A DNA stretch of 26,844 nucleotides, the filler included, from an uncultured virus (IMG/VR IMGVR_UViG_2061766007_000212) (Duplodnaviria; Heunggongvirae; Uroviricota; Caudoviricetes). It is 2 parts of one record of this genome, joined end to end, with 100 filler letters (N's around TTAATTAATTAA, not from the genome) between each part and the next. Parts side by side here need not be neighbours in the genome. Positions count along the whole stretch, not along the records: positions 12,330 to 26,844 come from IMGVR_UViG_2061766007_000212; 1 more part is not named here. One strand, written 5' to 3'. This document shows positions 12,230 through 23,597 of the stretch, in pieces. Within the stretch, counting starts at the first letter, position 1, and every line of letters begins with the position of its first letter. The notes beneath the pieces are model-generated. The model ran no database searches, was not told the origin of the DNA, and was given only the letters and a program-made list of their open reading frames with translations. Position numbers and translations under genes: made by a program.

Positions 12230-12329
12230 NNNNNNNNNNNNNNNNNNNNNNNNNNNNNNNNNNNNNNNNNNNNTTAATTAATTAANNNNNNNNNNNNNNN
12301 NNNNNNNNNNNNNNNNNNNNNNNNNNNNN

Positions 12330-14927: not shown

Positions 14928-15418
14928 GATTCGGCCCGCCTTTCCAGTTCAAGCAGACTTTGAAGCAGTTCGTTGCCGGTTTGCTCGGTCTGCACCATAT
15001 CAGCGGTCAGGTCTTTATATGCTGCCGCAAGGTCTCGCAGTTTGAATGACTTTGCCGCTTCCTTGACCTTCTGTATTCTCCGGCCATCCTGTGAAAACTC
15101 GTTCTCTGTTACGCTGTTCCGGGTTTCACTCCCGATCATGTCCGGGAGAGCATCAATTTCCCTTTCCAGTTTGCGAAGAAGTTTGGTTCTGATCCTGGCG
15201 GCGATCGTAGCATTATCTGCGGCAATATCGGCTGTTTTTTGCAGTGCTTTTGCGGTGGCTTTGGTTTCTGCCTCTTTCCTCATGGCAAACCATCCTTCAA
15301 CGGTTGCCCTGGGAGATAGGACATTGATGCTGACTCCGTATTTCTTCGCCAGCTTTCGGTAACTTGTTCCGCCGCCGATATACTCTGCCCGGATAGCGTT
15401 CCAGTCTACGCTACCAAT
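14924..15418 (-). CDS. terS: Terminase small subunit, allele B (start probably ATT 15418 or GTG 15427)
   Basis: DWNAIRAEYIGGGTSYRKLAKKYGV HTH; shares AADNATIAARI..KLLRKLE and FKLRDLAA with allele A. Confidence 0.8.
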   Translation of the reverse strand: MGSVDWNAIRAEYIGGGTSYRKLAKKYGVSINVLSPRATVEGWFAMRKEAETKATAKALQKTADIAADNATIAARIRTKLLRKLEREIDALPDMIGSETRNSVTENEFSQDGRRIQKVKEAAKSFKLRDLAAAYKDLTADMVQTEQTGNELLQSLLELERRAES

Positions 15419-15423
15419 GGGAA

Positions 15424-16113: not shown

Positions 16114-16791
16114 TTATTGCACCGGGTCTTTTAACCCGTTTGCTTCGAATGCTTTTTGTCGATCAATACAGGTTCCGCATTTTCCGCAGGGATGCTCCCC
16201 GCCTTCATAGCAAGACCATGTGAGATCATAGGGTACGCCGAGCATGGTTCCTTCATAAACAATGTCGGCTTTGGTTTTTCTGATGAACGGGGCATGGACT
16301 TCCACCTGTCCATCTGTTCCGTAGATTATCGCCCGGTTGATTGCCGCCGTGAACTCCGGCGTACAATCCGGATACGCATTCCCGGCCGCATCGTCTGCAT
16401 GAGCCCCGTAGTAGATTTCCTCTGCTCCGATGCTGACCGCGATACTGGCGGCAGCGGAGAGCATCAGCCCGTTTCTGAACGGAACGTATGTACTGACCGG
16501 TTTTCCGGGATCGTTTTTCTGCTGCTCTGCATAACTTCCTTCAGGAATAGCGTTTTTTGAGCTTTTAAGCAGGCTACAATCGCTTTTGCTGAAGATCGTG
16601 GATAAATCCAGCTCCATCAGTTCAACCCGGTAATATCGCGCAATATTCCGCGCAGATTGCATCTCCCTGTCGTGCCTCTGGCCATAATACATGTTGACAG
16701 CCAGCACATCCTCTGCATGATGCTTTTTCAGAGCAAAAGCCAGGCAGGTTGAAGAGTCCAGCCCGCCGGATAAAAGAACTACTGCCTTCAT
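16114..16791 (-). CDS. queC: 7-cyano-7-deazaguanine (preQ0) synthase QueC, complete (225 aa)
   Basis: SGGLDS PP-loop, YGQRH, TYVPFRN, YPDC, WSCY, CGKCGTC; ATGA coupling to the upstream gene. Confidence 0.95.
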   Translation of the reverse strand: MKAVVLLSGGLDSSTCLAFALKKHHAEDVLAVNMYYGQRHDREMQSARNIARYYRVELMELDLSTIFSKSDCSLLKSSKNAIPEGSYAEQQKNDPGKPVSTYVPFRNGLMLSAAASIAVSIGAEEIYYGAHADDAAGNAYPDCTPEFTAAINRAIIYGTDGQVEVHAPFIRKTKADIVYEGTMLGVPYDLTWSCYEGGEHPCGKCGTCIDRQKAFEANGLKDPVQ

Positions 16792-16940
16792 AAATATTTC
16801 TCCGCATACTGCTGATATTTCAGCCATTCTGTAAAGTTGTTCAGCGCGGCTTCCCGGCTGGCTCCGATCCGGTGACCTTTCGGAGCATCTTTTTTCCGCA
16901 TGGTCTTTCCGTCGAAGTAATACAGGAAACCGAACCTGTT
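16788..16940 (-). CDS. TGT/DpdA-like protein, C-terminal fragment (another allele)
   Basis: [14 protein letters not shown]…[13 protein letters not shown], copy of 17270-17422. Confidence 0.8.
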   Translation of the reverse strand, partial: NRFGFLYYFDGKTMRKKDAPKGHRIGASREAALNNFTEWLKYQQYAEKYL

Positions 16941-16950
16941 NNNNNNNNNN

Positions 16951-17256
16951 CGTACTGACCGGTTTCCCTGGGTCGTTTTTCTGCTGTTCTGCGTAGCTTC
17001 CTTCAGGAATAGCGTTTTTTGAGCTTTTAAGCAGGCTACAATCGCTTTTGCTGAAGATCGTGGATAAATCCAACTCCATCAGTTCAACCCGGTAATATCG
17101 TGCAATATCCCGCGCAGATTGCATCTCCCTGTCGTGCCGCTGACCGTAATACATATTCACCGCCAGCACATCTTCTGCATGATGCTTTTTCAATGCAACA
17201 GCCAGGCAGGTGGAAGAATCCAGCCCGCCGGATAAAAGAACTACTGCCTTTTTCAT
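16951..17256 (-). CDS. queC: QueC, N-terminal fragment (another allele)
   Basis: [14 protein letters not shown]…YGQRH; AAGGAAGG RBS. Confidence 0.88.
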
Positions 17257-17269
17257 TTCTTGACCTTCC

Positions 17270-18380
17270 TTATAAGTATTTCTCCGCATACTGCTGATAT
17301 TTCAGCCATTCAGTAAAATTATTCAGAGCGGCTTCCCTGCTTGCTCCGATCCGGTGACCTGCCGGAGCATCCTTTTTCCGCATGGTCTTTCCGTCGAAGT
17401 AATACAGGAAACCGAACCTGTTNNNNNNNNNNCTCATCTGCGTAAAAGAATGATTCCAGAATGTACGGGCGGTATTCCGTAACAGTTTTGTCATACCCCC
17501 CCATTCCGCCAGGGCCAGACACCGGCGAGNNNNNNNNNNGGTTGTCCAGGCTGTCGAGTCCACGCTGTCAAAATGACAGGTTTTTAACCAGTCCAACGCT
17601 GTGAATCCCAACCCGTGCACCTTAGCCCCTCGTTTATGAGCTTCGCCAATGAGCGCAGGAAACGCGCCGTATTTCTCTTTCCTGATCTCACCGCTGACAA
17701 TACCGCCGATCGCCACGTACCCGTACTCATCACACATCCTTTTATATTCATCCAAACCTCTTGAAAGATGCCAGACCGGGATGCATGGCCGGTTCGTCAG
17801 CTTTTCCAGTTTTGACCTGAACTGTTTTACCCGGTCGTATCCGACCACAACGTCGATGTCCAGTTCAAAGTACTTCTGAACATTGTTCCGGTTGATGAAA
17901 TCCGCATATCGTTCGATGTATTCGTCCCAATTCGGAGAGCCGCCCTTGCCTTGCATGAACGTGAACGCTCCGCTGTCGAGCAGGAAATCCCCGAAGTGCG
18001 GGATCAGCCGTTCTGTGTCTTCGTCCGCATAAAAAAAAGACTCCAGAATGTAAGGGCGATATTCATTAACAGTTTTGTCATACCCCCCCATTCCGCCAGG
18101 GCCAGACACCGGCGAGGTATAACTGCATTTGACCTCCGTTGACAGGATTTTGTGCATCCCGTTCTGTCCTGCAAGATAAATCTGCATTTTTCGTTTTTTT
18201 TTACGTTCTCGAGGAGTTCGTCGTGAATCCAATGCCTTGACTCCCCCCCCCGCCAGGAAAATTTCCATTGCATCCTCCGTGGCGTTGGTAAACGCTTGAC
18301 CTTCTGCCATTCTTCGGCAGGTTTCTTTCCAGAGCGGTTTCAGGTTGCCTGATACCCCCCACCGCCATATATAGGATCAT
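17270..18380 (-). CDS. Compact tRNA-guanine-transglycosylase-fold (DpdA-like) protein with frameshift-segmented, repeated N-terminal modules; interrupted by N spacers
   Basis: LLDSGAF, ELDID, IPVWH, VAIGG, VHGLG, DSVDS match TGT-family catalytic motifs; adjacent to queC and yhhQ; true start ambiguous (18380, 18268, 18187 or 18128). Confidence 0.72.
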
Positions 18381-18865
18381 GGCGTAAACCACTCTCCGCA
18401 GTGCGGGCATTTGATTTGCTTCGGCTCTTTGCCCTCCTTCTCTGGAGCAGGTGCAAACAGATCGTCAAGGCTGTCTGCATCCGGGAAAACGAAGTTCAGC
18501 TCTTCGAAGTCCTGGCCCTCAATAGCCAGGGCGGCGCACTCTTCCTCCAACGTCTGGAAGTCCCAGGCCGAGAGTTCAGCAGTTCGATTGTGTCTGATCA
18601 TGTATTCCCGCCGCTGTTTATCTGACAGGTGATCCAGCCGAATGCAGGGAACCTCATCAAGCCCGAGTTCCGTTGCTGCAATCTGCCGCCCGTGTCCCTC
18701 GACTATTACGTTGTCTTCGCCCCAGATACCGATTGGATCATTGAAGCCGTCTTCAAGGATTGACTTTTTGATCGCTTCGATATCATCCGGCGCATGACGG
18801 CGAGCGTTCTTTTCGTATGGTTTCAGATCACCCGGCGGCAGATATACAATCTGCAGTTTTTCCAT
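18377..18865 (-). CDS. ParB/Srx-like N-terminal domain protein with C-terminal Zn ribbon
   Basis: LKPYEKNARRH…SI…GFNDPI…IVEGHGR..AA..LG; CPHCG at the C-terminus. Confidence 0.85.
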   Translation of the reverse strand: MEKLQIVYLPPGDLKPYEKNARRHAPDDIEAIKKSILEDGFNDPIGIWGEDNVIVEGHGRQIAATELGLDEVPCIRLDHLSDKQRREYMIRHNRTAELSAWDFQTLEEECAALAIEGQDFEELNFVFPDADSLDDLFAPAPEKEGKEPKQIKCPHCGEWFTP

Positions 18866-18969
18866 GCTTTGACCTTCCTTTCTTGACCTTCTGTAATAGC
18901 ATCAGCCGCCCCGCCATCCTACTGCTGATTCCCTTCGTTCCGAGGAAGGTCAAACCCGGAACGGACACC
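18866..18969 (-). promoter_or_regulatory. Conserved structured leader RNA with anti-SD loop
   Basis: Stem CGTTCCG/CGGAACG enclosing TTTGACCTTCCT, the exact complement of AGGAAGGTCAAA just before the ATG; second hairpin ATCAGC…GCTGAT; conserved at 23389-23492. Confidence 0.65.
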
Positions 18970-18971
18970 AT

Positions 18972-19001
18972 AAAAAATAGCGGCATTCACTTGCCGCTTT
19001 T
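18972..19001 (-). terminator. Terminator-like hairpin immediately after the late promoter
   Basis: AGCGGCA-AGTGAA-TGCCGCT followed by ATTTTTT. Confidence 0.6.
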
Positions 19002-19010
19002 GGTGCATAT

Positions 19011-19043
19011 AATATATCACAGATAATAGTCCGTTTTAGTCCG
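19011..19043 (-). promoter_or_regulatory. Putative activator-dependent late promoter (allele 1)
   Basis: CGGACTA direct repeats 10 bp apart, then ATCTG-TG-a-TATATT extended -10; no -35; right after the ArpU-like gene. Confidence 0.6.
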
Positions 19044-19046
19044 CAA

Positions 19047-19487
19047 TTAAGCGGCCTTTGATTGAAGGTACTTCGAAATCAGCAGTAATGCACGGCCATG
19101 AATGACAAAAATCTGCGTTCGCTCATAATGCATTGCCTCGCATATTTCCGGGAACCCATCCCCGTTGATATACCGCCTTGTCAGCACCTCCTTCTGCCGC
19201 TCGTCCTTCAGGCTGTCAATCGCAGACAGGATTTCCCGCAAGGCCGTTTCCGCTTCAGCCTTATACTTGTATAAGATTTCGCAGGCATCAACAGCCGAAC
19301 AGACATCCCTTGCCATCGGATCATGTTCTGCCGGTGAGGATAATACCTTGATCTCCTTCAGCGTAATGCCCGTATTGGTCGCCCGTGCTAACGCTTCGTC
19401 AATCGCCCTTTGCAGAGCGTCCACCCGCCCGCAGAGCGACTTATACCGCCGCAGAAATACCTTTGCGGGGTTCTCCTGTCTGCTCAT
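19047..19487 (-). CDS. Late transcriptional regulator, ArpU/DUF1492-like
   Basis: AKVFLRRY…coiled coil…IDSLKDERQKEVLTRRYI…I…HGRAL sigma-4-like HTH; last gene before the packaging operon. Confidence 0.8.
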   Translation of the reverse strand: MSRQENPAKVFLRRYKSLCGRVDALQRAIDEALARATNTGITLKEIKVLSSPAEHDPMARDVCSAVDACEILYKYKAEAETALREILSAIDSLKDERQKEVLTRRYINGDGFPEICEAMHYERTQIFVIHGRALLLISKYLQSKAA

Positions 19488-22736: not shown

Positions 22737-22909
22737 ATTCTCGAGGAGTTCGTCCTGAATCCAATGTCTTGACTCCCCCCCCGCCAGGAAAATTTTCATC
22801 GCATCCTCCGTGGCATTGGTTAACGTTTGACCTTTTGCCATCCTTCGGCAGGTTTCTTTCCAGAGCGGTTTCAGGTTACCTGATACCCCCCCGCCATATA
22901 TAGGATCAT
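22737..22909 (-). CDS. TGT/DpdA-like protein, N-terminal modules (second allele), frameshifted at G7
   Basis: [18 protein letters not shown]…MKIFLAGGESRHW. Confidence 0.65.
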
Positions 22910-23388
22910 GGCGTGAACCACTCTCCGCAATGTGGACACTTGATCTGCTTCGGTTCCTTTTCCTCTTTTTCTGGAGCAGGTGCAAACAGATCATCAAGAC
23001 TGTCCGAATCCGGGAATACGAAATTCAATTCCTCGAACTCCTGTCCCTCAATCGCAAGGGCCGCGCATTCTTCCTCCAACGTCTGGAAGTCCCAGGCCGA
23101 TAATTCAGCCGTCCTATTGTGCCGGATCATGTATTCCCGCCGTTGTTTATCGGTCAGGTGATCCAGCCGGATGACCGGCACGGTTTCCAGTCCGAGTTCC
23201 TGTGCGGCGATCTGCCGGCCGTGGCCCTCAACAATTACGCCGTTCCATGTTGCTATCGGATCGTTGAAGCCATCTTCAAGGATTGACTTCTTGATTGCCT
23301 CGATATCATCCGGTGCGTGTTTCCGGGCGTTCTTTTCGTATGGTTTCAGATCACCCGGCGGCAGATATACGATCTGCAGTTTCTCCAT
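22906..23388 (-). CDS. ParB/Srx-like N-terminal domain protein with Zn ribbon (second allele)
   Basis: Near-identical to 18377-18865. Confidence 0.85.
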   Translation of the reverse strand: MEKLQIVYLPPGDLKPYEKNARKHAPDDIEAIKKSILEDGFNDPIATWNGVIVEGHGRQIAAQELGLETVPVIRLDHLTDKQRREYMIRHNRTAELSAWDFQTLEEECAALAIEGQEFEELNFVFPDSDSLDDLFAPAPEKEEKEPKQIKCPHCGEWFTP

Positions 23389-23492
23389 GCTTTGACCTTC
23401 CTTTCAGACCTTCAAAATAAAGCATCAGCCGCCCCGCCATCCTATTGCTGATTCCCTTCGCCCCGAGGAAGGTCAAACCCGGAACGGACACC
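23389..23492 (-). promoter_or_regulatory. Structured leader RNA (second allele)
   Basis: Same as 18866-18969; CGGAACG becomes CGGGGCG, keeping the stem through G-U pairs. Confidence 0.65.
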
Positions 23493-23563: not shown

Positions 23564-23597
23564 ATGATAGCACAGATTTTACTCCCATTTACTGCCG
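23564..23597 (-). promoter_or_regulatory. Putative late promoter (allele 2)
   Basis: GGCAGTAAA/GGGAGTAAA repeats 10 bp apart, then ATCTG-TG-c-TATCAT. Confidence 0.6.

Follow-up and report, generated by a model that had tools for sequence, protein, structure and literature searches.

Sequence comparison identifies positions 18866 to 18969 of the window, by which we mean the whole 26,844-nt stretch of DNA analyzed from an uncultured virus (IMGVR_UViG_2061766007_000212), filler included, as a real, conserved, folded RNA leader that heads a late operon for DNA modification and packaging. We regard it as a new structured late-operon leader, absent from Rfam, and its carriers are a group of rumen and gut Clostridia phages. 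All of the elements flagged by the initial annotation are on the minus strand, and both stems, the 12-nt complement, and the second GAAGGTC box are present. The leader occurs twice in the window, with the following elements.

18866 to 18969, minus strand: leader RNA copy 1, the main feature, 104 nt
18936 to 18963, minus strand: hairpin P1 of copy 1, with arms CGTTCCG (18957 to 18963) and CGGAACG (18936 to 18942)
18943 to 18956, minus strand: P1 loop of copy 1, 14 nt, with the anti-Shine-Dalgarno (anti-SD) sequence TTTGACCTTCCT at 18943 to 18954
18930 to 18935, minus strand: linker AAGGGA, with the near-invariant GGG at 18931 to 18933
18901 to 18929, minus strand: hairpin P2 of copy 1, with arms ATCAGC (18924 to 18929) and GCTGAT (18901 to 18906)
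18909 to 18915, minus strand: G-box GGCGGGG within the P2 loop of copy 1
18883 to 18891, minus strand: purine box 1, GAAGGTCAA, a "decoy" upstream of the SD that can pair with the P1 loop over 9 bp
18868 to 18879, minus strand: purine box 2, the Shine-Dalgarno (SD) region AGGAAGGTCAAA, the exact complement of TTTGACCTTCCT
23389 to 23492, minus strand: leader RNA copy 2, a strain variant with the same boxes (anti-SD at 23466 to 23477, SD at 23391 to 23402)
23480 to 23486 and 23459 to 23465, minus strand: P1 arms of copy 2
23447 to 23452 and 23424 to 23429, minus strand: P2 arms of copy 2

The two copies are strain variants placed side by side in a scaffold that contains 32 N-runs and a TTAATTAATTAA linker. 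In both of them purine box 2 is complementary to the P1 loop over 12 bp without a mismatch and stands 2 nt 5' of the ATG of parB (18865 to 18863 in copy 1), exactly as the initial annotation had described, and a perfect inverted repeat of 12 nt was found in 0 of 2,000 shuffles of the 104-nt leader, the longest by chance being 11 nt. Several of its other claims were also borne out: the ATCAGC/GCTGAT hairpin intervenes, giving the hairpin(loop)-hairpin-SD pseudoknot topology; the GAAGGTC box just upstream of the SD, a possible alternative partner, is complementary to the P1 loop over 9 bp; and the 3' arm of P1 reads CGGGGCG in copy 2, where two A-to-G changes replace A-U with G-U pairs and preserve the stem. 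The annotation had also put the conserved block at about 75 nt between diverging flanks; such a block exists and the flank upstream of it is unrelated between the copies (49%), but the block spans 104 nt and the downstream flank is parB coding sequence with 82.8% identity. The leaders themselves match at 96 of 106 alignment columns (90.6%) and are thus more conserved between the copies than the parB coding sequence. Covariance models match copy 1 at 18900 to 18969 with 90.3 (R1), 83.2 (R2), and 71.8 (R3) bits, where R1 is too narrow a model, covering only the window's clade and two other leaders (L001 and L009), and copy 2 is matched at 23423 to 23492. The folding energy of the whole leader is modestly below that of shuffles (z of -1.4 and -2.3).

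The leader lies between a putative late regulator and the genes of the late operon, as follows.

19047 to 19487, minus strand: late-regulator gene copy 1 (Ltr-like; DUF1492/sigma-70 region 4-like; Pfam DUF1492, E = 2.6e-4)
19028 to 19043, minus strand: direct repeats CGGACT-N4-CGGACT directly after the regulator stop codon, presumed regulator binding site
19011 to 19019, minus strand: extended -10-like element TGATATATT (pattern TGnTAnnnT), presumed late promoter
18972 to 18998, minus strand: intrinsic terminator t1, AGCGGCA-AGTGAA-TGCCGCT plus a T-run, directly 5' of the leader
18377 to 18865, minus strand: ParB-like gene copy 1, the first late gene (Pfam; PHROG ParB-like, E = 2e-44), with a C-terminal zinc-ribbon motif
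17270 to 18310, minus strand: TGT/DpdA-like gene (PHROG queuine tRNA-ribosyltransferase, E = 3e-45)
23564 to 23572, minus strand: extended -10-like element TGCTATCAT of copy 2; next come a hairpin and a branched, U-rich structure resembling a terminator
22906 to 23388, minus strand: ParB-like gene copy 2 (Pfam ParB_N; 82.8% nucleotide identity to copy 1)

After parB, the gene order is TGT/DpdA-like, QueC, Vut_1/YhhQ-like, terS, and terL (Pfam, PHROGs). The regulator gene also matches a transcriptional regulator/activator PHROG and Pfam DUF1492/Sigma70_r4, and a profile built from 12 regulator relatives aligns with regions 3.2 to 4 of sigma-factor chains from the PDB (E = 2e-4). The t1 stem has 7 pairs, 5 of them G-C, and is followed by ATTTTTT. 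At copy 2 a strict terminator scan found none, and the terminator-like structure there was read by eye.

About 45 related phage contigs have the same layout of sigma-like late-regulator gene, direct repeats, extended -10 element, promoter-proximal terminator, and leader. Across this family the leader runs from GGUG through P1 with its pyrimidine loop, GGG, and P2 with the G-box (GGYGGGG) on the 3' side of its loop to one or more purine boxes that complement the P1 loop, the first of which begins 2 to 12 nt 3' of P2 in the relatives. Two G residues of the linker's GGG run are invariant in a MAFFT alignment of 13 leaders, several leaders have GAGGUGG or AGGAGGGG as their G-box, and one leader (L295) has five tandem AAGGAAG boxes. 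The complement between loop and SD extends over 12 bp in the window and in L009 and over 11 bp in L017. In three leaders that directly precede terS (L266, L273, and L299), the partner of the P1 loop is a decoy box 5' of the real SD, and the conserved fold therefore exists without contact to the ribosome site. The first genes after the leader are ParB-like genes (then DpdA/QueC, Mom, or N6- or C5-methylase modules), an HNH gene, a radical-SAM-like gene, or terS alone, and a Mom-family protein is encoded in the late operon of 8 relatives.

Other searches for the leader returned less. A blastn search of 50,697 phage records, with the leader and parB as the query, gave no match, the exact gapped pattern of both 12-mers gave 0 matches in IMG/VR, and an IMG/VR scan with 14 nt taken from the conserved initial transcribed region added no new contigs among the matches listed, after filtering. 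A strict hand-written descriptor, which recovered 16 of 30 known leaders and gave 0 minus-strand matches, was abandoned, and a search of the literature on anti-SD sequences, late operon leaders, and DUF1492 found no description of this leader. The leader core also occurs with other flanks in contigs of two sequencing runs, which are probably DNA. We rejected several roles for parts of the leader: P2 as an intrinsic terminator (only 3 leaders have a T-run after it), a G-quadruplex of G-boxes (its bases are those of the covarying P2 stem), CsrA sites (GGA is in some loops only), a Chi-like site (GCTGGTGG is in only 3 leaders), and a leader peptide (the ATG is in copy 1 only).

A plain MAFFT alignment of 13 leaders analyzed with RNAalifold gave 0 predicted pairs and no consensus structure because unequal loop lengths misalign the arms, and we therefore used model-fitted alignments and shuffle tests. 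When 14 distinct leaders were aligned to the model, 94.4% of the P1 and P2 cells are paired, compared to 57.6% in shuffles (0 of 500) and 36 to 50% in slid controls, and both sides have changed in 12 of 13 pairs (6 of 7 in P1 and 6 of 6 in P2), covariation counts that rest on alignments fitted to the structure. Covariation among homologues, whose absence the initial annotation had said would speak against the motif, is thus found. For six rows left out of model R2, 70 of 74 cells are paired. A P2 stem of at least 6 pairs surrounds the G-box in all 19 non-redundant leaders (Fisher P = 3e-7 compared to shuffles), and the P1 hairpin is commoner than in shuffled flanks (P = 5e-5; 12 leaders). When each P1 loop was compared with its own downstream 60 nt, the mean longest Watson-Crick helix was 7.93, versus 5.57 for non-cognate combinations (0 of 20,000 permutations), and cognate pairing likewise exceeded non-cognate pairing on wider segments. 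Better stems form on the sense than on the antisense strand in 10 leaders versus 3. Thus, covarying stems and a loop/box complement kept by compensatory and G-U changes support an RNA structure on the sense strand.

Some of these features could also arise if the boxes were sites in DNA, with a phage-specific 7- to 12-bp box, present in one inverted copy and one to four direct copies, bound by a protein (the late regulator, the ParB-like protein, or, at pac, TerS) and with protein-DNA co-evolution as the source of variation. Box sequences do vary from phage to phage and agree among the copies of any one phage, and in terS-first phages the boxes are at or near terS. We find this explanation hard to credit, since copies differ in ways that keep RNA pairing rather than DNA identity (in the L116 loop, a G in place of the window's A makes a G-U pair with the SD box), every box resembles an SD when read on the sense strand, the last being the SD itself, the flanking P1 and P2 stems covary and are better in the sense than in the antisense orientation, and 1 to 3 kb separate the boxes from terS in ParB-first phages.

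The initial annotation had proposed a ligand-sensing motif connected with 7-deazaguanine. The leader does resemble the preQ1-II riboswitch (RF01054), in topology only, in that a hairpin loop pairs with the SD across an intervening hairpin, and the window's operon encodes DpdA-like, QueC, and YhhQ-like proteins, which handle 7-deazaguanine; the invariant unpaired G-rich boxes could also make a ligand pocket. However, at the gathering score Rfam gave 0 matches for the window and 20 related loci, and at E values up to 10 over 18800 to 19060 it gave only snoRNA, viral-pseudoknot, and CRISPR-repeat noise. The covariance models of preQ1-I (RF00522), preQ1-II, and preQ1-III (RF02680) found no match, which agrees with the annotation's own remark that the preQ1 consensus is missing. 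The proposed link to 7-deazaguanine genes did not survive: among 80 parB-anchored loci, 6 had the leader and que genes, 18 the leader only, 18 que genes only, and 38 neither (odds ratio, 0.70; Fisher P = 0.60), and late operons of the Mom, N6-methylase, C5-methylase, HNH, and plain terS kinds have the same leader in front, the distribution that the annotation had said would mark a generic late leader rather than a riboswitch. Model R2 matched in only 1 of 121 genomes of the host metagenome-assembled genome's family, the one with prophage contigs, and so the leader is not a host metabolic regulator. In conserved nucleotides, too, it differs from preQ1-II, and it is confined to phage late operons. 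Since it goes with late operons generally and not with queuosine-type genes, a preQ0 or preQ1 riboswitch is unlikely, and we consider a riboswitch for any small molecule (preQ0, preQ1, CDG, guanine, or another) exceedingly improbable. No paper combining DpdA, a riboswitch, and a phage was found in the literature.

The sole promoter-like element is upstream of the leader, and from its position the leader is probably part of the late mRNA. In most relatives the same extended -10 element stands 21 to 22 nt upstream of where the terminator hairpin begins, equivalent direct repeats of 5 to 6 nt with a period of about 10 nt lie 5' of the -10 element, and a strict script found a terminator-like hairpin at the t1 position in 24 of 31 leader loci. 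One relative (L101) has the same promoter-terminator cassette without the leader; there the cassette adjoins the terS SD and leaves no space for a further promoter.

Lambda PR'-tR'/Q, HK022 put, and lambda nut are processive antitermination systems. They share with the layout seen here a terminator right after the promoter, a regulator site at the promoter, and a two-hairpin leader RNA of about 70 nt; they differ in that the leader here follows the first terminator, and no Q, N, or NusG-like factor was identified. By analogy with these systems or with a LoaP-type hairpin, the leader could serve antitermination or polymerase loading, with P1-P2 and the G-rich boxes binding RNA polymerase, the sigma-like regulator, or another factor, the SD-like boxes being structural, and late transcription becoming terminator-resistant. 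In keeping with this idea, the leader is generic to late operons irrespective of the first gene, the promoter and promoter-proximal terminator are arranged as at lambda PR'-tR', two leaders (L108 and L112) have an extra intrinsic terminator between P2 and the SD, and terminator-like hairpins in the bodies of late operons number 16 sense versus 5 antisense over 270 kb. We nevertheless consider it rather unlikely, as t1 is upstream of the leader, which cannot help polymerase past it, downstream terminators are found in only 2 or 3 lineages, 8 of the 16 sense sites represent one conserved site within terL, no Rfam antitermination RNA matched in the window or the 20 related loci, and L101 uses the promoter-terminator cassette without a leader.

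A further alternative is discrimination by transcript origin, as at T4 gene e, in which late transcripts proper would begin between P2 and the SD and only read-through transcripts would carry the anti-SD and stay untranslated. Directly 3' of P2 are TGCTATTAC in copy 1 and TGTTATTTT in L116, t1 and the anti-SD would together make a double lock, and the implied start is about 21 nt before the ATG, near the 23 nt before terS at which the late mRNA 5' end is mapped for phi11 and 80alpha in the part of PMC3152322 that we drew on. This proposal is very doubtful, because the -10-like element after P2 is not conserved in the family, for which reason we also rejected an internal sigma-A promoter there, and L101 has no space for a promoter after t1.

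The surroundings have the features of Ltr-type late control. As in the Ltr/RinA phages covered by the excerpts of Ferrer 2011 (PMC3152322) and Quiles-Puchalt 2013 (PMC3753634) used here, a DUF1492/sigma-r4 gene is directly upstream, repeats follow its stop codon, a terminator separates the regulator from the first late gene, and there is a long untranslated stretch. By analogy with the Ltr repeats in those excerpts of PMC3753634, the direct repeats are presumed to be the regulator binding site. In the same excerpts of both papers terS comes first and no structured leader RNA is described, whereas here a consensus extended -10 element precedes the terminator and the leader shows RNA covariation. 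In staphylococcal RinA phages, according to the excerpts of PMC3152322, the regulator binding region precedes the mapped 5' end by >155 bp, a terminator lying between them, and simple activation does not explain this distance, which would also suit antitermination.

Our preferred reading, held tentatively as a possibility short of an even chance, is that the window's leader is a cis-acting translational gate on the ParB-like gene that works by SD masking. The P1 loop and a purine box would form a pseudoknot enclosing P2. The purine box appears twice in the window, the second copy serving as the SD of the ParB-like gene, and the pyrimidine-rich P1 loop is a ribosome-like anti-SD. If the P1 loop, or the entire 5' half once P1 opens, paired with the SD box, the SD would be masked, and pairing with upstream decoy box 1 would leave it free. 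Masking would presumably lower translation and its relief restore it, which would restrain or time translation of the first late cistron, the head of a possibly host-harmful DNA-modification module; the operon may also be affected through polarity and stability. The predicted unpaired probability of the SD is 0.37 in copy 1, compared to 0.64 with shuffled upstream sequence, 0.18 versus 0.53 in copy 2, and 0.11 versus 0.55 in L003. For most other leaders, the predicted SD accessibility is the same as in shuffled controls (e.g., 0.88 for L023 and 0.68 for L038), as it is for type B leaders, in which the SD is within a hairpin loop. By these folding predictions, SD masking is not universal across the family, and plain masking assigns no function to the most conserved nucleotides (GGUG, GGG, and the G-box). 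A further reading, which we think unlikely, treats the P1-pseudoknot-P2 domain and the invariant nucleotides in it (GGUG, GGG, and the G-box) as a late-leader RNA of a new class; a factor (RNA polymerase, Ltr, or the 30S subunit) would read the domain and license the late operon after the promoter-proximal terminator.

The leaders of T4 gene e (lysozyme) and Mu com-mom (the translation-inhibition structure) are reportedly SD-sequestering phage leaders. Here, as there, a pyrimidine stretch of the leader complements the ribosome site of a potentially harmful late gene, which would allow post-transcriptional control, and the Mom-family proteins in the late operons of the 8 relatives recall Mu. 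In contrast to those leaders, the anti-SD here is in a hairpin loop and forms a putative pseudoknot that encloses another conserved hairpin, its partner box occurs twice, the fold persists away from the real SD, and no Com-like activator or internal late promoter was identified.

STAB-SD elements are 5' stabilizers of Gram-positive mRNAs, and the lambda N-leader is also a precedent. The leader resembles STAB-SD in having SD-like sequences in the 5' untranslated region, off the start codon and beside a 5' hairpin, but STAB-SD elements are without a covarying anti-SD partner or G-box hairpin. In a STAB-SD-like role, the 5'-terminal hairpin and SD-like boxes would recruit the 30S subunit or block RNase J; alternatively, the leader could be a processing module in which a long-range helix is cut, for example by RNase III, to leave a short, translatable 5' untranslated region. 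Consistent with either are the several SD-like sequences per leader, five in L295, the SD-like G-boxes of several leaders, predicted long-range helices of about 17 to 20 bp that enclose P2, and, from the portions of PMC3152322 and PMC3753634 consulted, staphylococcal late mRNAs whose 5' ends are 23 nt upstream of terS and which look processed. A stabilizer, however, needs no anti-SD loop, and it is the loop/box complement that covaries most clearly; we judge stabilization or processing decidedly unlikely.

Late operons set the timing of DNA-modifying enzymes, terminase, and virions in a temperate phage, and the leader, a defined, covarying RNA element with natural variants that is widespread in rumen and gut Clostridia phages, stands at the point where Ltr/RinA-type regulators would switch them on across a terminator and a long leader. 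The ParB-like genes head interchangeable anti-restriction modules (DpdA/QueC, Mom, and N6- and C5-methylases) under one shared control region, and a 7-deazaguanine module beside a pseudoknot should not be taken as a sign of a preQ riboswitch, which removes a tempting false lead. If the leader were a factor-read domain, it would be the missing piece behind the unexplained distance from the Ltr/RinA site to the late mRNA 5' end in phages of Gram-positive bacteria, and the Ltr family would act by Q-like or put-like antitermination rather than by plain activation.

All of the elements that the initial annotation listed for the leader of the ParB-like gene were found in the window sequence. The first hairpin (P1, CGTTCCG/CGGAACG) has a 14-nt loop that includes TTTGACCTTCCT, and the exact complement of this loop stretch, AGGAAGGTCAAA, lies 2 nt upstream of the ATG as the Shine-Dalgarno (SD) box; a second hairpin (P2, ATCAGC/GCTGAT) and an additional GAAGGTCAA box between P2 and the SD are also present. 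A 12-nt perfect inverted repeat was reached in 0 of 2,000 shuffles of the leader. A second leader copy is found at 23389-23492, 4,523 nt from the first; there the 3' arm of P1 is CGGGGCG, and pairing is kept through two G-U pairs. Identity between the copies is 90.6% for the leaders, 82.8% for the parB coding sequences and 49% for the upstream flanks. The annotation's observation is thereby confirmed. All genes surrounding the leader are on the minus strand, in the following order:

19047-19487, minus strand: regulator gene, 146 aa (Pfam DUF1492; PHROGs transcriptional regulator/activator)
19028-19043, minus strand: two CGGACT direct repeats, read from the sequence
19011-19019, minus strand: extended -10-like element, TGATATATT
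18972-18998, minus strand: intrinsic terminator t1
18866-18969, minus strand: the leader, 104 nt
18865, minus strand: ATG of the ParB-like gene
downstream of the ParB-like gene, minus strand, in order: TGT/DpdA-like gene, QueC, Vut_1 (YhhQ-type) transporter, terS, terL (Pfam, PHROGs)

The second copy of the regulator gene also matched Pfam Sigma70_r4, and a profile of 12 regulator relatives matched sigma-factor chains in regions 3.2-4. Because the scaffold is gap-ridden, with 32 N-runs, a six-frame-stop linker (TTAATTAATTAA, 12274-12285) and many near-duplicate blocks, we read what had been called alleles as strain variants assembled side by side. The 391-aa "QueC" open reading frame (16114-17433, minus strand) is an assembly artefact, its blocks 16490-16951 and 16952-17433 being tandem copies, 93-94% identical, with 10-N gaps between.

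The leader with parB had no blastn match in a collection of 50,697 phage records. Relatives were collected by protein, as 80 IMG/VR loci with a ParB-like protein, 27 loci via the regulator profile, 80 via terminase and 21 genome contigs. The nearest genome contigs belong to a Ructibacterium sp. metagenome-assembled genome (MAG; Oscillospiraceae) and other rumen/gut Clostridia MAGs; one contig that is nearly identical has been assigned to a Fibrobacter MAG, an assignment we do not trust. Of 121 genomes in the Ructibacterium MAG's family, the second covariance model described below (R2), run with stricter filters, detected the motif in 1, that MAG itself. By eye, script and covariance models, about 45 distinct contigs were found to share this control region. 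Its elements are, in order, regulator gene (in some cases with one or two small genes after it), direct repeats of 5 to 6 nt with a period of about 10 nt, TGnTATAAT, a conserved initial transcribed stretch, t1 and leader.

In most loci, the first base of t1 lies 21-22 nt past the TG of TGnTATAAT, which puts the start of the hairpin near +6 of the presumed transcript. With its direct repeats, TGnTATAAT and a terminator hairpin at this spacing, the cassette resembles the layout of lambda PR'-tR', and it is found in the window (19011-19043 and 18972-18998, minus strand) and in L001, L002, L016, L021, L035, L037, L038, L047, L088, L101, L102 and other related loci. In excerpts from papers on phages with Ltr or RinA late regulators, direct repeats immediately follow the regulator gene (PMC3753634) and a terminator lies between that gene and terS (PMC3152322, PMC3753634). 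According to one of these excerpts, the RinA-dependent 5' end is 23 nt upstream of the terS ATG, binding requires sequence >155 bp upstream of that mapped end, and the authors regard RinA action as more complex than direct activation (PMC3152322). As far as these excerpts describe them, such late regions have the same layout as ours. In addition, ours has a consensus extended -10 ahead of the terminator and, downstream of it, an RNA that covaries. The PR'-tR'-like layout suggests that the sigma-like Ltr regulator may act by, or together with, antitermination. An antitermination leader that binds polymerase or a factor would fit this setting and is possible, though we think it unlikely.

No consensus structure emerged from a plain MAFFT alignment of the leaders, in which loops of differing length put the arms out of register. 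With a fixed search procedure, all 19 non-redundant leaders had a stem of at least 6 pairs around the G-box of the P2 loop (individual shuffle p, 0.009-0.375; Fisher combination, 3e-7), and a stem flanking the pyrimidine stretch gave a Fisher p of 5e-5 in 12 leaders, three of which the script mis-anchored. By stem score, the sense strand was the better of the two in 10 leaders and the antisense strand in 3, with ties in 6 (Wilcoxon p, 0.037); 24 of the 142 pairs in this comparison were G-U. We then have three successive covariance models: R1, from 5 close sequences and an author-supplied structure; R2, from true R1 hits; and R3, from 14 R2 hits, each at the expected place in its own locus. In the 14-row alignment, 94.4% of 178 cells pair, compared with 57.6% in shuffles (0/500) and 36-50% with slid partners, both sides change at 12 of 13 pairs and 68 cells hold compensatory changes where 21 are expected, counts that are inflated because model alignments are fitted to the structure. 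The safer evidence for the fold is the shuffle tests together with six held-out rows, unused in building R2, in which 70 of 74 cells pair. At E up to 1, R3 matched 13 times in the window and 80 parB loci and 12 times in the 80 terminase loci, always on the sense strand and in the leader position, with no stray matches. Beside this covariation, protein sites at the DNA level are a highly improbable account of the conserved block.

Two leader types were seen. In type A, which includes the window, GGUG is followed by P1 with its pyrimidine-rich loop, a GGG-bearing linker, P2, a short A/U-rich linker and between one and four purine boxes with complementarity to the P1 loop; the G-box (GGYGGGG) is at the end of the P2 loop, 0-4 nt 5' of the 3' arm. 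In type B (L007, L016, L028, L034, L035, L039, L046-L048 and several loci where terS comes first), called by eye and not detected by the covariance models, the pyrimidine stretch makes up the 5' arm of P2, the loop of this hairpin is an octamer (UGGUGGGG, AGGAGGGG or something very similar), and the SD is in the loop of a third hairpin. The t1 hairpin loop of some type B loci (L034, about 2360-2400; L007, about 2375-2405) is also pyrimidine-rich and anti-SD-like (CUUAAACCUUCCUU, CUUACUUCUUCA). An insertion of 75 nt, containing two hairpins, lies between purine box 1 and the SD box in L003 (2420-2490), L004, L091 and L092, so the leader tolerates large inserts there. An extreme multi-SD variant precedes terS in L295 (2960-3060); it has five AAGGAAG-type boxes in tandem, together with repeated CACTTCCCCA...TGGGGA hairpins.

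The P1 loop, with bounds taken from the covariance model, forms longer Watson-Crick helices with the 60 nt after P2 of its own leader (longest helix, mean 7.93) than with non-cognate ones (5.57; 0/20000 permutations), and wider segments gave the same outcome. Pairing partners differ among loci: UUUGACCUUCCU with AGGAAGGUCAAA in the window (12 bp), UUUUCUUUCCCU with AGGGAAAGAAAA in L009 (12 bp), CUCCUCUC with GAGAGGAG in L038, CCUCUCUU with AAGAGAGG in L102 and UGACCUCC with GGAGGUCA in L266; in L116, a G replaces the window's A and gives a G-U pair with an unchanged box. Since the first partner box begins 2-12 nt past P2, the conserved fold is a pseudoknot enclosing P2. The RNA structure proposed in the initial annotation is thus supported by shuffle tests, covariance and loop-box pairing.

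Its suggestion of a preQ riboswitch is not supported. Rfam gave no match at the gathering score in the window and 20 related loci, and only noise for the leader at E up to 10. In the association test that the annotation had proposed, run on 80 parB-anchored loci, the leader was present in 24, a DpdA-like, QueC or Vut_1 gene in 24 and both in 6 (odds ratio, 0.70; p, 0.60), with que-type genes counted inside the 2.5 kb fetched per locus. Modules behind the leader and ParB-like gene, each followed by terS and terL, are of several kinds (Pfam): DpdA-like/QueC/Vut_1, Mom-family proteins (8 loci), N6/N4 methylases separate from or often fused to ParB (5 or 6 loci), C5 methylases (2 loci) and, in 1 locus, an ABC-like ATPase. 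An HNH endonuclease comes first in L102, and in L001 the leading gene, ahead of ParB, codes for a CxxxCxxC protein (PHROG: unknown). In the terminase-anchored sample, the leader lies directly upstream of terS in phages lacking a ParB gene, as type A in L266, L312, L273 and L299 (model matches down to E 8e-7) and, by eye, type B in L261, L265, L267, L297 and L298. In L101 the promoter-terminator cassette abuts the terS SD and the leader is absent, and L114 has P1 alone. Modeling homologous leaders thus showed covarying stems, but before non-que operons as well, which makes this a leader generic to the late operons of this phage group, neither a host metabolic regulator nor tied to 7-deazaguanine. 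A small-molecule riboswitch is the least credible explanation.

We also noted other features of these operons. The ParB-like gene heads interchangeable DNA-modification modules ahead of terS/terL (L016-L048, L257-L304). In L275 (955-1060) and L281 (909-1010), a window-type leader precedes only the first ~22 codons of a ParB-like gene, a deletion remnant, so the leader persists without its gene. In L108 (2810-2925) and the same region of L112, where ParB is fused to a methylase, an additional block that includes an intrinsic terminator (GCGCGGGAAGGTGCTCCCCCGCGC, then a T-run) separates the G-box hairpin from the SD of the fusion gene. A conserved sense-strand terminator-like hairpin with a T-run lies ~760 nt into terL in L257-L261, L264, L275 and L281. 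Between mom and terS is a conserved tRNA-like sequence (L017, 1880-1960; L032, 3677-3757; L039, 3676-3756; L047, 2098-2150) with an acceptor stem ending in CCA, a D-arm, a GGTTCGATTCC T-arm and a 4-nt loop on the anticodon-position stem, called by neither ARAGORN nor Rfam. The terS gene starts with TTG after a conserved extended SD, CGGGGGTGATA, in L009, L016, L017, L022, L023, L032 and the window (about 15400-15420, minus strand), suggesting that the 3' end of the host 16S rRNA includes GAUCACCUCC.

In the window, the P1 loop can pair with both purine boxes, over 9 bp with box 1 (the decoy) and 12 bp with box 2 (the SD). In the minimum-energy folds predicted, P1 is opened and the entire 5' half pairs with the two boxes. 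The SD is predicted to be unpaired with a probability of 0.37 in copy 1 and 0.18 in copy 2, compared with 0.64 and 0.53 when the upstream part is shuffled. On these grounds we tentatively adopt, at somewhat below even odds, the reading that the leader acts in cis to gate translation of the first late cistron; decoy and SD would then be alternative partners of the P1 loop. However, SD masking is not predicted for most other leaders, the P1-loop partner in terS-first phages is a decoy rather than the SD, and the gate model assigns no function to the invariant GGUG, GGG and G-box nucleotides. We hold a stabilizer or processing module to be decidedly unlikely; T4 e-like discrimination of transcript origin seems quite improbable.

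No description of such a leader was found in the literature listings and abstract openings covered. The leader is an undescribed, covarying late-leader RNA of uncultured Clostridia phages, a routine kind of discovery in RNA-motif hunting whose interest is raised by its place in the Ltr/RinA late-switch architecture.
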